From Pseudobdellovibrionaceae bacterium (lineage in GTDB: Bacteria > Bdellovibrionota > Bdellovibrionia > Bdellovibrionales > Bdellovibrionaceae), in NCBI GenBank assembly GCA_044359815.1, contig JBIKLL010000056.1, positions 1 through 18,760 on the forward strand: 18,760 bases of DNA. Direction: 5' to 3'. A program made the position numbers and the translations under genes. Positions 1,927-6,285 of this stretch are shown piece by piece; the stretch's first letter is position 1, and each line of letters opens with the position of its first letter. The notes under the pieces are model-generated. The model made no database searches. It saw nothing but the letters and a program-made list of their open reading frames with translations, and had not been told where the DNA came from.

Positions 1927-2403
1927 ATGCAAAATACTACAGACAAAGTTTGGCGCAAATGCAGTCGCTGCAAAAAAGACATCGAAAAAAACTCTAAATA
2001 TTACGAATGCAGTGTTACCACCTGCACTCATCCCAGAACCGGCTATGCTTTTTGTAGTGTAGGCTGTTGGGAAGCCCATGTTCCCGGTGCCAAACACCGT
2101 GATGCCGCAGCTATCGAAAAACGCGCACCCAATCTAACTTGGGATCCAGCGGGACCAGTGGCTGCACCGACCAGAAGGATCGCGGTCAATCAGCCGGAAG
2201 TCAGTTCATCCACTACAAAACTGCCCTTGGATGTTTTGGTTGTCGTTTCTAAAGTCAAAGATTACATCAAAGCCAAAGCTGACATGAACACATCAGATTC
2301 AGTCAAAGACTTGCTGTCTGAAAAAGTCCGTCAATTGTGCGACGACGCTATCGACAAGGCCCGCTCCGAGGGCCGAAAAACCGTCATGGACCGGGATTTT
2401 TAA
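1927..2403 (+). CDS. Bacterial histone with an N-terminal Cys6His2 (ZZ-like) zinc finger
   Basis: aa 102-158 (DVLVVVSKVKDYIKAKADMNTSDSVKDLLSEKVRQLCDDAIDKARSEGRKTVMDRDF) closely resemble the Bdellovibrio histone Bd0055 as I recall it, including the R-x-T-x4-D clamp (R150, T152, D157). The N-terminus has C12, C15, C28, C33, C43, C47, H51 and H57, followed by a Pro/Ala/Ser-rich linker. Confidence 0.9.
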   Translation: MQNTTDKVWRKCSRCKKDIEKNSKYYECSVTTCTHPRTGYAFCSVGCWEAHVPGAKHRDAAAIEKRAPNLTWDPAGPVAAPTRRIAVNQPEVSSSTTKLPLDVLVVVSKVKDYIKAKADMNTSDSVKDLLSEKVRQLCDDAIDKARSEGRKTVMDRDF

Positions 2404-2494: not shown

Positions 2495-4141
2495 TCAGTT
2501 GTTCAGGTTTAGTTTGCGCATTTTCCACAACAGGTGCGCGATGTAGGGTCTGCGATTTTCTCCAGTCGTCACCATCAGCAGTTTTGTGATTTTAAGTGCT
2601 TCGGGGTCAGTGAACAATATTATCAGCATTTCTTGGATAAAATTTGTATTTAGGGTGATGTAGTTGTCAGTTCCCACGCCTAAGTTCATTCCCTTTTTTT
2701 CCCACCAAGAAAAAGGATGGTCTTTATAATCTTCAAATCGGCCTGTCAGTTTGTTGTTTGATGAAGGCAGTGATATCAAGTTTGCGCCTTTTTGAATCAT
2801 GCGATTTAAAACATCATGTTGATAATGCTCAACTTCGCGGGCGGTGTGAAATTTAGCTTTTACAAAATGTGTGTGCTCTTTGTCGTTAAGGGGGTTGCCC
2901 GCAAATAATTTATCCAAAACATATTTGTAGGGTCCCCAGTCCAACTCAATCAGTTCTTTGTATTCAGGATCAGCTGCAGTGATGGGTTTTCCAGCATAGT
3001 TTTTTTCAAAAATCGATTGGTAGATTTTGTGAAAATAAAAATTTGGATTAATCCCCAGGCTTAACCCATGTTCAACAGTGTCGATATGCCAAATATTCAT
3101 AGCATTATCCACAGCTTGGATTCCCTTTTTCAGTGTGTGAAATGTTTCTCCGTGATGGGATCTGATTTTAAATCCTCGGTATTGCAATTTCCGAAACCCG
3201 CGCTCAAATTCTTTGAAATGTTCTTTTCGGTACAGCTCGTTTTCGCTACCGACGGTGTCGACCTCGCAAACTATGCCTTGTAAATACGAATGATTGTCGA
3301 CCATCTTTACCAGGTCTTCAACTTGGGCTTCGAAATGTTCTTTTCGCGAGCTGTATTTTGTCGAATCAAAAAAAGTAGCTTCTTTACGAAAGCTGGGTGA
3401 CAGAATAAATTTAAATTTTGGATTTTGATCTTTAAATGTTTTAAATCCGTCATACAAACCTAAAACGACATCTTCACTGGTCAGGTTTTCACTGCCAGGA
3501 ACTTGATCAGCCGATGACGATGACGAACGCGACAGAGTGAATTTTAATCTGATGCTTCCGACATTAAATTTATTAAACAGTTCACTGGCGATGTGATAGG
3601 CGCACTCTGAATGAGCTTTGCGATCCACCAAAACCAGTTTTGGTAAATACAAAACGCTTAGGTATTTCATAAATCCTTCGCCGTCTTTGATGCGAATCAA
3701 TTTATCAACGTCTTCTACTGTTTTAATTGGCAAACAACTGCTGCCATAGTTTTCGACCAATTTCTTTTTGTAAATTTCCTTATGAGGTCCAGTCAGAAGC
3801 TCTTGAATTCTCGGAAATAAAAAATCCGCATTCAGTGATCCCGTTAAATGCAAATGATCGTCAGAAAATTTCAATGGAAAGTGTTTAAAAAACTCAAACA
3901 GTGCCTGCGAAAATTCATGGGCCAACAATTGCTGAATCTGCAGTTTGTTTTGCTGAAACTGTGATAATTGTTTTTGAAAATCCACAACAATTTCCCAGGC
4001 CCTGGGGGCTTCGCGCTTCAGAAATTCTGAATTCATCAATTTCAGAGTGTCAGACAGAGAAACACCATTGGTTTCACTGACAATTTTCATCAAATGTTTC
4101 ACAAGGATTTTATGTGTGATTTCGTCCAGTACGGGGTTCAT
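2495..4141 (-). CDS. Atypical adenosine/AMP deaminase-family amidohydrolase (548 aa)
   Basis: Metal and catalytic motifs in order: H96-L-H98 (HLHLTGSL), 'VDTVGSE', H329-x-x-E332 (SHHGE), H358 (EHG), 'LPSSN', 'HPF', D492 (GTDN). Extra N-terminal region of about 90 aa and an insertion of about 80 aa after H358. Confidence 0.85.
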   Translation of the reverse strand: MNPVLDEITHKILVKHLMKIVSETNGVSLSDTLKLMNSEFLKREAPRAWEIVVDFQKQLSQFQQNKLQIQQLLAHEFSQALFEFFKHFPLKFSDDHLHLTGSLNADFLFPRIQELLTGPHKEIYKKKLVENYGSSCLPIKTVEDVDKLIRIKDGEGFMKYLSVLYLPKLVLVDRKAHSECAYHIASELFNKFNVGSIRLKFTLSRSSSSSADQVPGSENLTSEDVVLGLYDGFKTFKDQNPKFKFILSPSFRKEATFFDSTKYSSRKEHFEAQVEDLVKMVDNHSYLQGIVCEVDTVGSENELYRKEHFKEFERGFRKLQYRGFKIRSHHGETFHTLKKGIQAVDNAMNIWHIDTVEHGLSLGINPNFYFHKIYQSIFEKNYAGKPITAADPEYKELIELDWGPYKYVLDKLFAGNPLNDKEHTHFVKAKFHTAREVEHYQHDVLNRMIQKGANLISLPSSNNKLTGRFEDYKDHPFSWWEKKGMNLGVGTDNYITLNTNFIQEMLIILFTDPEALKITKLLMVTTGENRRPYIAHLLWKMRKLNLNN

Positions 4142-4155
4142 GTCCCCAGGATAAC

Positions 4156-4728
4156 CTAACCGGCCTTAACTGGAAAGTATTGCAGCCATGTATTCGGGAC
4201 TTTTCCCAAGGCCAGTTCAAATTCTGCTGATGGCAGCCAATTAGGCATGCGAGGTTCTTTCATTAATGGCATTTTTGCTGATTGCGGAGTCCTGTTGGCT
4301 TTCTTTTGATTGCAATTTCGGCAGGCAGTAACGACATTTGTCCAGGACTTGGGACCATTCAATGATGCGGGCACGACGTGATCCAAGGTTAACTGTCTGT
4401 TGGGATGTGATTTGCCACAATATTGGCAGGTAAAATTATCGCGGATGTAAACGTTTTCTCGGCAAAACCGTACATGGGTTTGTGATCGCGGCCTTACATA
4501 AGTTTTTAATCTCATCACGCTGGGTAATTGAAAACTCATTCTGACTGAGCGAATATAAACGTCATGGTATTCAATGATTTCAACCTTGCCTTGAAACCAT
4601 AAAATCACGGCTTTTTGCCAATTAATAATTTTCATGGGTTCGTAGCTGACATTTAAAAGCAGTGATCTGGTAAAACCTCTCACTGTTTCGATACCTATAT
4701 GGTCGTCGGTGTCTGCTGCATCTAGCAT
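4156..4728 (-). CDS. HNH endonuclease (McrA-like, zinc-binding)
   Basis: 'RENVYIRDNFTCQYCG', 'LTLDHVVP', 'SWTNVVTACRNCNQKK' and the family N-terminus 'LLLNVSYEPM...W.KA'. The start is either ATG 4728 or GTG 4683 (preceded by AGGT). Ends 14 nt before the deaminase ATG. Confidence 0.93.
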   Translation of the reverse strand: MLDAADTDDHIGIETVRGFTRSLLLNVSYEPMKIINWQKAVILWFQGKVEIIEYHDVYIRSVRMSFQLPSVMRLKTYVRPRSQTHVRFCRENVYIRDNFTCQYCGKSHPNRQLTLDHVVPASLNGPKSWTNVVTACRNCNQKKANRTPQSAKMPLMKEPRMPNWLPSAEFELALGKVPNTWLQYFPVKAG

Positions 4729-5784: not shown

Positions 5785-5949
5785 GACCTTTAGTACTGCG
5801 CCATATAAGTTATTCAAACTAAGAATTAGACTTTTCGTTAAGTTTAACATTTGTTATGTTGGTTAAGTTCCGTGTTCGTTTCCTATTATGTGCTTTTGCC
5901 TTTGGAAATGTTCTCGAGAAACGCCCTAGGTTTTTTTGAAGGAGGTTCC

Positions 5950-6285
5950 ATGGGTAAAAAGTTATATGTAGGTAATCTTCCCTACTCAATCGATGATCAG
6001 GCATTAACTTCTGAATTTTCAAAATTCGGAACAGTTACGTCTGCAAAAGTTATTACTGACCGTGAAACAGGTCGCAGCAAAGGTTTCGGTTTCGTTGAAA
6101 TGGAAACTGATGATCAAGCTGAAAGCGCGATTTCACAATTGAATGGTCAGCCAATGGGCGGAAGAAACATTAATGTTTCTGAAGCTAAGCCCCAAACAGA
6201 TCGTCCCCGCGGTGGTGGTGGTCGATTCGGTGGTGGCGGCGGCGGTCGCGACGGTGGATTCCGTGGCAATCGTGGTCCAAGATAA
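5950..6285 (+). CDS. Single-RRM RNA-binding protein with a Gly/Arg-rich tail (Rbp type)
   Basis: The real start is ATG 5950 after AAGGAGGT (5939-5946), not the track's 5851. RNP2 'LYVGNL', RNP1 'KGFGFVEM', and tail RPRGGGGRFGGGGGGRDGGFRGNRGPR. Confidence 0.95.
   Translation: MGKKLYVGNLPYSIDDQALTSEFSKFGTVTSAKVITDRETGRSKGFGFVEMETDDQAESAISQLNGQPMGGRNINVSEAKPQTDRPRGGGGRFGGGGGGRDGGFRGNRGPR

Follow-up and report, generated by a model that had tools for sequence, protein, structure and literature searches.

The open reading frame (ORF) at positions 1927..2403, forward strand, of the 18,760-nucleotide stretch of DNA analysed here (the window; contig JBIKLL010000056.1 of assembly GCA_044359815.1) encodes a ZZ histone, in which an N-terminal domain predicted to hold two zinc ions is joined by a flexible linker to a C-terminal bacterial histone fold. 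The frame opens with ATG, specifies 158 amino acids and ends, within the coordinates given, with its stop codon. It belongs to an uncultured Pseudobdellovibrio-like genome (2.95 Mb, 125 contigs, 91% complete; the window is on contig C51) and its product is, as judged by sequence, an orthologue of Bd3044 of Bdellovibrio bacteriovorus. Membership of the published class of ZZ histones is secure; the kind of protein was already known, and what is new here is one further sequence of it. The best explanation of its function, to which we assign a probability of about 60%, is an accessory DNA-binding dimer resembling HBb (Bd0055) of Bdellovibrio, with two tethered, autonomous zinc modules. The histone folds would pair in a handshake dimer, bind the DNA backbone at minor grooves through S108, K109, K111, K115, N121, S123, K151, T152 and R156, and bend DNA without sequence specificity. 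Each dimer would carry two zinc modules as extra tethered binding heads; if, as we guess, these make a second, non-specific contact with nucleic acid or phosphate, the protein could loop or bridge DNA in the nucleoid, as an accessory present in low abundance.

To our knowledge, bacterial histones are a recent discovery, among which HBb and HLp alone have been characterised, and the ZZ histone is the only bacterial variant to which a further domain has been added. Schwab et al. (2024, Nat Commun, PMC11390915) describe 'ZZ histones' as proteins with an N-terminal ZZ-type domain, having one C4 and one C2H2 site, and a C-terminal alpha3 fold like that of bacterial dimer histones; their examples include Bd3044 of B. 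bacteriovorus HD100 and D0LYE7 of Haliangium ochraceum. They liken the domain to the ZZ domains of HERC2, p300 and ZZZ3, cited as binders of the H3 tail, and raise the idea that it binds histone tails, only to argue against it, because residues of the pocket lack conservation and a second histone is present in only 50% of ZZ-histone proteomes. They also note that the ZZ histone is expressed at very low levels in B. bacteriovorus. According to Hocher et al. (2023, PMC10627809), Bd3044 is found in 37% and Bd0055 in 67% of Bdellovibrionota genomes, and Bd3044 is less abundant than Bd0055 and unable to compensate for it. A 2025 preprint (10.1101/2025.09.24.678257) places the peak of both bd0055 and bd3044 transcripts late in growth phase, and a further paper (PMC12701072) counts ZZ histones among five alpha3 subfamilies and names Bd3044 as the second histone.

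The assignment rests on homology over the whole protein. A search of an indexed protein database returned 163 homologues at an expect value (E) ≤ 1e-3, far more than chance would give, most of them aligned at full length and, where a source was named, from Bdellovibrionales or Bdellovibrionaceae. Our main alignment of 118 sequences, to which counts out of 118 refer throughout, comprises 116 of the 120 listed homologues plus two entries present twice, with the partial proteins P0066 and P0116 left out. Complete B. bacteriovorus genomes (loci L017-L023) match over residues 1-158 of the query with 53-55% identity (E 1e-48 to 1e-49), and the closest loci in the species collection, from Pseudobdellovibrio and Pseudobdellovibrionaceae metagenome-assembled genomes, are 70-73% identical in the zinc domain. 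The protein shares with the ZZ histones of Schwab et al. the order of N-terminal C4/C2H2 ligands, linker and RxTxxxxD histone fold. A full-length AlphaFold2 model built from the 118-sequence alignment is confident in both domains, with a mean predicted local distance difference test score (pLDDT) of 78.8 and a predicted template modelling score (pTM) of 0.44.

The C-terminal fold is closest to HBb. Against PDB sequences, residues 102-157 match Bdellovibrio HBb (8cmp and 8fvx) at E 8.7e-12 and 9.7e-12, followed by Leptospira HLp (5e-8) and Thermococcus HTkC (4e-5), while library histone models are matched below threshold only (Pfam CBFD_NFYB_HMF, E 0.007; NCBIfam archaea_histone, E 0.0038). Superposition of the modelled fold on HBb with Foldseek gives E 1.5e-4 to 6e-4, TMt 0.80-0.85, a root-mean-square deviation (rmsd) of 1.2 A and 54% identity, with HLp and HTkC also matched, and VIA-align returns Z scores of 7.4-7.5 to HLp, HBb and HTkC. 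The model is confident over residues 110-158, with helices at 110-118 and 126-147, and the protein ends in G-R-K-T-V-M-D-R-D-F. Hu et al. (2024, PMC11317129) describe for HBb a clamp between R51 and D58, interface residues L31, I35, L38, V11 and I59, and DNA contacts by N22, R57, S9, T53, T8, S24, K10, K12, K52 and K16. With an offset of 99 between HBb and the window protein, nine of these ten contact residues are retained here. Counting lysine and arginine as equal, the equivalents of S9, K10, K12, N22, K52, T53 and R57 persist in 114-118 of the 118 homologues, that of S24 in 103 and that of K16 in 88 (K + R); R150, T152 and D157 are invariant and K151 is present in 117, and the dimer-interface positions are hydrophobic throughout. 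Given the 54% identity to HBb and the conserved interface and DNA-contact residues, the window protein is likely, by homology, to pair as a handshake dimer and in that form to bind and bend DNA. The truncated alpha3, the RD clamp and the KT pair are shared with the HBb 'bacterial dimer' histone (8cmp, 8fvx, 9ezz, 9f0e); unlike HBb, which is a single fold, the window protein is a fusion variant that adds about 100 N-terminal residues in the form of zinc module and linker.

The added N-terminal domain carries the ligand pattern C12-x2-C15-x12-C28-x4-C33-x9-C43-x3-C47-x3-H51-x5-H57. Seven of the eight residues (C12, C15, C28, C33, C47, H51 and H57) are invariant in the main alignment, C43 is present in 117 sequences, and the spacing is unchanged in 116. 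From the cross-brace order given for D0LYE7 by Schwab et al. (PMC11390915) we infer that C12, C15, C43 and C47 form predicted site 1 and C28, C33, H51 and H57 predicted site 2; H35 is variable, with glycine in 74 of 118 homologues, and is thus no ligand candidate. Six of the seven ligand spacings equal those of the hidden Markov model (HMM) positions in that paper. The exception is the third pair, which the legend of its Fig. 4 gives as C51 and C53 (HMM positions 41 and 43, hence C-x1-C) where all 118 of our sequences have C-x3-C; the remaining six ligands agree with the HMM numbering of the paper, and the mismatch may come from an error in numbering or from a difference between subfamilies. 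Beyond the ligands, W9, K16, Y25, the C-S-V-S-T-C stretch, T38, F42, P53, R58, A62 and E64 are at least 90% conserved. The module (residues 8-68) is consistently basic, with a mean net charge of +4.7 (range +2 to +8) across the homologues and basic residues at positions 10, 16, 17, 37, 56 and 58 (R10, K16, K17, R37, K56 and R58) in 106-118 of 118.

In the full-length model, blocks of this domain (residues 8-70) have mean pLDDT of 81-93 and form one helix (45-55) and four strands (8-11, 18-20, 24-28, 62-66); a separate model of residues 1-71, built from a 17-sequence alignment (A2), has pLDDT 77.8. Strand 62-66 belongs to the fold in both, which reaches to about residue 68. The best Foldseek row for the domain in the full-length model is the p62 ZZ domain (E 0.044, TMt 0.61), and for the isolated domain p62 ZZ occupies rows 1-12, followed by Ada2, dystrophin, p300, BIG, PRT1, HERC2 and KCMF1. 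VIA-align gives Z up to 4.6 for the isolated domain (RSC subunit, Nbr1, CPEB1 ZZ, ZZZ3 ZZ, p62, HERC2; 3.6-4.5 for Nbr1, CPEB1, ZZZ3, p62 and HERC2), with the matches to ZZ domains intermixed with B-box, RING/U-box and ribosomal zinc ribbons. The domain resembles eukaryotic ZZ domains (PF00569; p62/SQSTM1, Nbr1, ZZZ3, HERC2, p300, dystrophin) in its eight cross-brace ligands, its two predicted zinc ions and the lead that these domains take in fold searches, and differs from them in its weak fold scores, in peptide-pocket residues that Schwab et al. (PMC11390915) report as not conserved in ZZ histones, and in the lack of any match at sequence level. Specifically, the window protein is unmatched by Pfam ZZ (PF00569) at E ≤ 10, PF00569 is missing from the 25 families hit most often (E ≤ 1) across the 118 members, and a zinc-domain profile finds no PDB sequence at E ≤ 10. 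On the models, 'ZZ-like' is therefore a reasonable label for the fold of this predicted two-zinc cross-brace domain and does not denote membership of the eukaryotic ZZ family.

A further likeness is to FCS/MYM-type (TRASH-like) fingers (zf-FCS, PF06467; zf-FLZ, PF04570), which share the outer site C-x2-C ... F-C-S-x2-C; F42 is invariant in the main alignment and S44 is at least 90% conserved in A2. The weak Pfam matches of the 118 members at E ≤ 1 are to C1_2 (33), zf-FLZ (26), VATC (19) and zf-FCS (11). The window protein itself matches zf-FLZ at E 0.03 with 14.2 bits, below the cutoff of 23.4, and the best values among all members (zf-FLZ 0.0027, zf-FCS 0.24) are likewise below the family thresholds. 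Structural comparison with the ESM Atlas lists ZZ histones first and then zf-FCS/MYM proteins at TM 0.55, and the TRASH domain (2das) and NosL appear in the fold-search lists of the isolated domain. FCS fingers bind nucleic acid; they hold one zinc each, whereas the module described here has a second, interleaved C2H2 site.

Between the two domains lies a linker rich in serine, alanine and proline, whose limits are our own delimitation. As residues 76-83 and 85-95 have pLDDT below 50 and pTM is 0.44, no packing between the domains is predicted, and the span from H57 to L104 ranges from 29 to 90 amino acids across homologues. Within it, 108 of the 118 linkers have a basic-aliphatic motif of the type RR[IV][IV], position 83 being arginine in 95 and lysine in 19 sequences and I85 being kept in 94. 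The distance from this motif to the histone fold is near constant (median 21 residues, standard deviation 3.9) and that to the zinc domain is variable (median 18, standard deviation 10.6); hence the motif belongs with the histone module, as a short tail-like element.

This architecture had been outlined by an earlier, sequence-only reading of the window, much of which holds. Its ligand pattern and span (nucleotides 1960-2097) are exact on translation of the ORF; the histone fold that it placed at nucleotides 2230-2400, with GRKTV, MDRDF and R-x-T-x4-D, is borne out by the match to HBb at E 8.7e-12; and the architecture that it compared to Bd3044, an HBb-like fold with a ZZ-like two-zinc domain, is that of the published ZZ histones. 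Some of its lengths need correction: the alpha2 helix, put at roughly 25 residues, is present in the model and has 22 (126-147), and the low-complexity linker, put at about 45 residues, exists and measures about 33 (69-101). The conservation of the cysteines and histidines, whose lack it would have taken as a refutation, is seen at all eight positions (seven in 118/118, C43 in 117/118); the Foldseek comparison that it suggested was clear for the histone part (HBb, rmsd 1.2 A) and equivocal for the zinc domain, where ZZ domains lead with weak scores. The features are collected in Table 1.

Table 1. Features of the ZZ histone gene in the window, with coordinates in nucleotides of the window
Feature	Position	Strand	Details
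ZZ-type histone, Bd3044-like	1927..2403	+	ORF; 163 homologues at E ≤ 1e-3; published class
N-terminal two-zinc cross-brace domain, ZZ-like by fold, with F42-C43-S44 'FCS' motif	1948..2130	+	residues 8-68; models, pLDDT mostly 81-93
Eight predicted zinc ligands, whole span	1960..2097	+	conservation 118/118, C43 117/118
Flexible Ser/Ala/Pro-rich linker	2131..2229	+	residues 69-101 (~33 amino acids); own delimitation
Basic-aliphatic motif R83-R84-I85, family pattern RR[IV][IV]	2173..2181	+	inside linker; homologue alignment
alpha3-truncated HBb-like histone fold	2230..2400	+	residues 102-158; PDB sequence E 8.7e-12
RxTxxxxD 'RD clamp' (R150...D157) and K151-T152 DNA-contact pair	2374..2397	+	role from HBb literature

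The fusion is widespread and patchy. In a sample of 401 genomes from the phylum, 357 match the protein and at least 146 (36%) encode the full-length fusion, a lower bound that agrees with the 37% published by Hocher et al. (2023, PMC10627809). Among 53 other genomes of its own family, 26 have the fusion with a short histone, two a stand-alone zinc protein with a short histone, and 25 the short histone alone; presence and absence of the fusion both occur within single genera. The fusion thus differs from HBb in being found in 26 of 53 family genomes, against 53 of 53 for the short histone, and in its weak expression in B. bacteriovorus (Schwab et al., PMC11390915). This patchiness, together with the lower abundance and low expression, is why we regard the protein as accessory.

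Genomes were scanned for histones with a profile of the three histone folds of the host genome (A3, E ≤ 0.1), which are the fusion, a 64-amino-acid HBb-like protein and a 65-amino-acid HLp-like protein. The HBb-like short histone (L002:1480-1674, reverse strand; contig C33) lacks an extended basic tail, and its fold is 59% identical to that of the fusion, so that a heterodimer of the two would be possible in the host genome. Its gene is convergent with a DNA-ligase-like ORF, the two ends overlapping by 4 bases. The third histone (L003:1480-1674, forward strand, corresponding to G000:C99:38513-38707) has a short lysine-rich N-terminus and its best match among PDB sequences is Leptospira HLp (E 1.1e-8), with HBb behind (1e-5); of 60 other genomes of the family, only one was found to have an orthologue of it (G415, 59% identity). 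Schwab et al. (2024, PMC11390915) assign bacterial FtF histones for the most part to a different class of the phylum. In genus g78, the fusion is the sole match to the A3 profile in both of the near-complete genomes scanned, G128 and G050 (99% complete). G009, G384 and G098 have a second, short histone besides it. The short histones of families f23 and f24 (L110-L113; genomes G100, G025, G087 and G073) are frames of 66-78 amino acids that are 56-67% identical to the ZZ-histone fold; this is similar to or above the 59% of the host's own short histone and may bear on the short-histone lineage from which the fusion came.

The zinc module also occurs without a histone. Proteins of about 65-75 amino acids in G244, G253, G208 and G274 match residues 1-70 only and stop about 10 residues past the conserved A-I-E-K-x-A-P stretch; a tblastn search with the window's histone domain (E ≤ 10) found none within about 3 kb of these four genes. 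The best 80 ZZ loci of the species collection comprise 77 fusions and three stand-alone genes. Searched exhaustively with a profile of the domain, 1.84 billion representatives yielded 281 proteins at E ≤ 1e-3, and the best 150 of these include 69 with a histone fold, 26 that end within 20 residues of the domain and 55 with other tails, several of the last being visibly truncated or frameshifted fragments of fusions. P0209 (218 amino acids), P0168 (140) and P0127 (134) join the zinc domain to non-histone tails, one with a Cys-rich C-terminus and one with hydrophobic helices, and may be real alternative fusions or artefacts of metagenome assembly or frameshift. A word-index search for short relatives of 39-125 amino acids found two proteins only, which we attribute to its sensitivity limit since the exhaustive search found far more. 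The nearest ESM Atlas clusters (76, 80 and 145 members; scores 0.90-0.91) are hypothetical Myxococcota proteins of 69-78 amino acids.

All three genomes of genus g47 match the zinc module, and G004 encodes a stand-alone protein of about 71 amino acids. The three-fold profile found no histone fold in G004, G013 or G022 (98, 96 and 91% complete), and the matches in G013 and G022 are for that reason read as probably zinc-only. This distribution indicates that the module is an autonomous unit that has been fused to a histone, and its presence alone, even in genomes without a detected histone, argues against a histone tail as its ligand. Neither 'standalone' nor 'stand-alone' is found in the main text of Schwab et al. 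(PMC11390915).

On what the zinc module binds we offer a guess. The uniformly basic character of the module makes nucleic acid our first guess, and a non-specific nucleic-acid or phosphate ligand is the answer to which we commit ourselves, tentatively and at somewhat less than even odds; recruitment of a protein other than a histone follows closely. Several observations weigh against our reading. The contact residue T8 of HBb is replaced by V107, with valine, alanine or isoleucine in all 118 homologues, and the histone fold is less basic than HBb, with a net charge near neutral (mean +0.4); DNA affinity may therefore differ from that of HBb. Acidic residues, too, are conserved in the zinc module, at three positions only (E49, D59 and E64, in 104-117 of 118), and eukaryotic ZZ domains bind peptides. 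The resemblance to ZZ domains is itself weak overall (Foldseek E 0.04-1, TM 0.45-0.64; VIA-align Z 3.4-4.6, none reaching 5), and the isolated domain has no Foldseek match at E ≤ 1e-3. We compared 19 relatives' loci, 16 of them scanned against Pfam, and scanned 5 further loci, and no neighbour gene is conserved across relatives' loci; neither the HD-domain gene nor the adenosine-deaminase-like gene of the window recurs. In the literature searched, we found no experimental work on any ZZ histone. A prediction of a complex between residues 1-75 and two copies of residues 96-158 scored 0.00 in both runs; it was made without controls and carries no weight either way.

The most serious alternative, possible but on balance unlikely, is that of an adaptor: the histone dimer would anchor on DNA while the zinc module recognises one particular protein other than a histone, or a peptide terminus in the manner of eukaryotic ZZ domains, and brings that partner to the nucleoid, the stand-alone form binding the same partner off DNA. 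Peptide-binding ZZ domains (p62, Nbr1, ZZZ3, HERC2, p300) are indeed the best fold matches of the module, residues of surface type beyond the ligands are at least 90% conserved, and a long flexible tether would be typical of recruitment modules. However, no recurrent neighbour offers itself as the partner in the 19 relatives' loci (16 Pfam-scanned), the eukaryotic pocket residues are not conserved (Schwab et al., PMC11390915), and a uniformly basic module fits a nucleic-acid ligand no less well than a protein one. A regulatory switch, in which the Cys-rich module senses zinc or oxidation and thereby tunes how active or stable the attached fold is (the stand-alone form then being a small redox- or metal-responsive protein), would accommodate the six conserved cysteines and two histidines and the FCS/TRASH-like resemblance (26 zf-FLZ and 11 zf-FCS matches, TRASH and NosL in the fold lists, zf-FCS in the ESM Atlas). 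We consider it improbable: these resemblances all fall below family thresholds, the models show no contact between the domains (pTM 0.44, linker pLDDT below 50), and no metal or redox gene is linked to the 16 scanned loci, except for Rrf2/nitroreductase genes beside two.

Least probable of all is the mechanism that the sequence-only reading had favoured, a built-in reader of another histone's N-terminal tail that heterodimerises with the short histone on the nucleoid and recruits partners. In its favour, work cited by Schwab et al. (PMC11390915) has the eukaryotic ZZ domains of p300, ZZZ3 and HERC2 as binders of the H3 tail, and the host genome does have two further histone folds, one 59% identical to that of the fusion and one HLp-like with a lysine-rich N-terminus. 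As a general mechanism it is unsupported: no histone fold other than that of the fusion was found in the g78 genomes G128 and G050, the module stands alone in G004 with a histone found in none of G004, G013 and G022 (g47), the host's short histone is without an extended tail, and Schwab et al. (PMC11390915) had raised both the pocket residues and the second histone present in only 50% of ZZ-histone proteomes. The lysine-tailed third histone is rejected as the general ligand of the zinc module by its orthologue in one of 60 other family genomes, set against the fusion in 26 of 53.

The surroundings of the gene contribute little. In the window it is flanked by the upstream HD-domain gene and by the convergent adenosine-deaminase-like ORF (2495-4141, reverse strand; 548 amino acids), whose match to adenosine deaminase (E 2.9e-9) is partial, covering profile positions 24-221 of 330, and which is followed by an HNH endonuclease ORF (4156-4728, reverse strand). 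Among relatives, neighbours are shared in small groups only (FlgD upstream in two loci, Rrf2/nitroreductase in two, PGA_cap in two, subtilase in three), and the same ORF layout is seen in unscanned loci, one more for Rrf2/nitroreductase and two more for PGA_cap; loci with common neighbours are presumably close kin. As the neighbours are not conserved, they give no contextual clue to function. A defence or phage origin was considered and rejected: PADLOC and PHROG families gave no match at E ≤ 0.1, a tblastn search of 50,697 phage records gave none at E ≤ 1e-3, and guanine-cytosine content is ordinary (0.38-0.46). A scan of positions 1700-2700 found three promoter-like sites, against 1.8 expected, and one terminator-like site, on the wrong strand, and is uninformative. 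In G253, the stand-alone ZZ gene (L025:3021-3233, reverse strand) is convergent to a SWIB/MDM2-domain gene (L025:2639-2989, forward strand; Pfam E 1.6e-28) whose product has a long Lys/Ala-rich N-terminal tail; this is a single case, and the same genus has other neighbours in L027. Elsewhere in the window, a 144-amino-acid ORF (5851-6285, forward strand) matches RRM_1, the RNA recognition motif of eukaryote type, at E 5.8e-25 and adjoins genes for DUF520 and an FKBP-type isomerase.

This comparison adds to the description of ZZ histones the modular presence and absence of their parts, the RR[IV][IV] motif, the consistently basic zinc module and the lack of conserved neighbours. It also narrows the hypotheses for the ligand of the module to DNA, RNA or a non-histone protein rather than a histone tail and, since the module is separable and present where no histone was found, it is at such ligands that the search should be directed. 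A bolder proposal, which we rate as a long shot of perhaps some merit, is that the module represents an autonomous family of small (65-80 amino acids), basic, two-zinc proteins in Bdellovibrionota and Myxococcota that act on nucleic acid or chromatin alone and were once captured by a histone. If this were true, the fusion would be a Rosetta stone for nucleoid-associated zinc proteins of bacteria, as a class not yet described, and the fused form would be a DNA bridger with two tethered zinc heads and RR[IV][IV] as a DNA contact resembling a histone tail. Were the stand-alone module to prove nucleoid-associated, it would constitute a further family of bacterial chromatin proteins.

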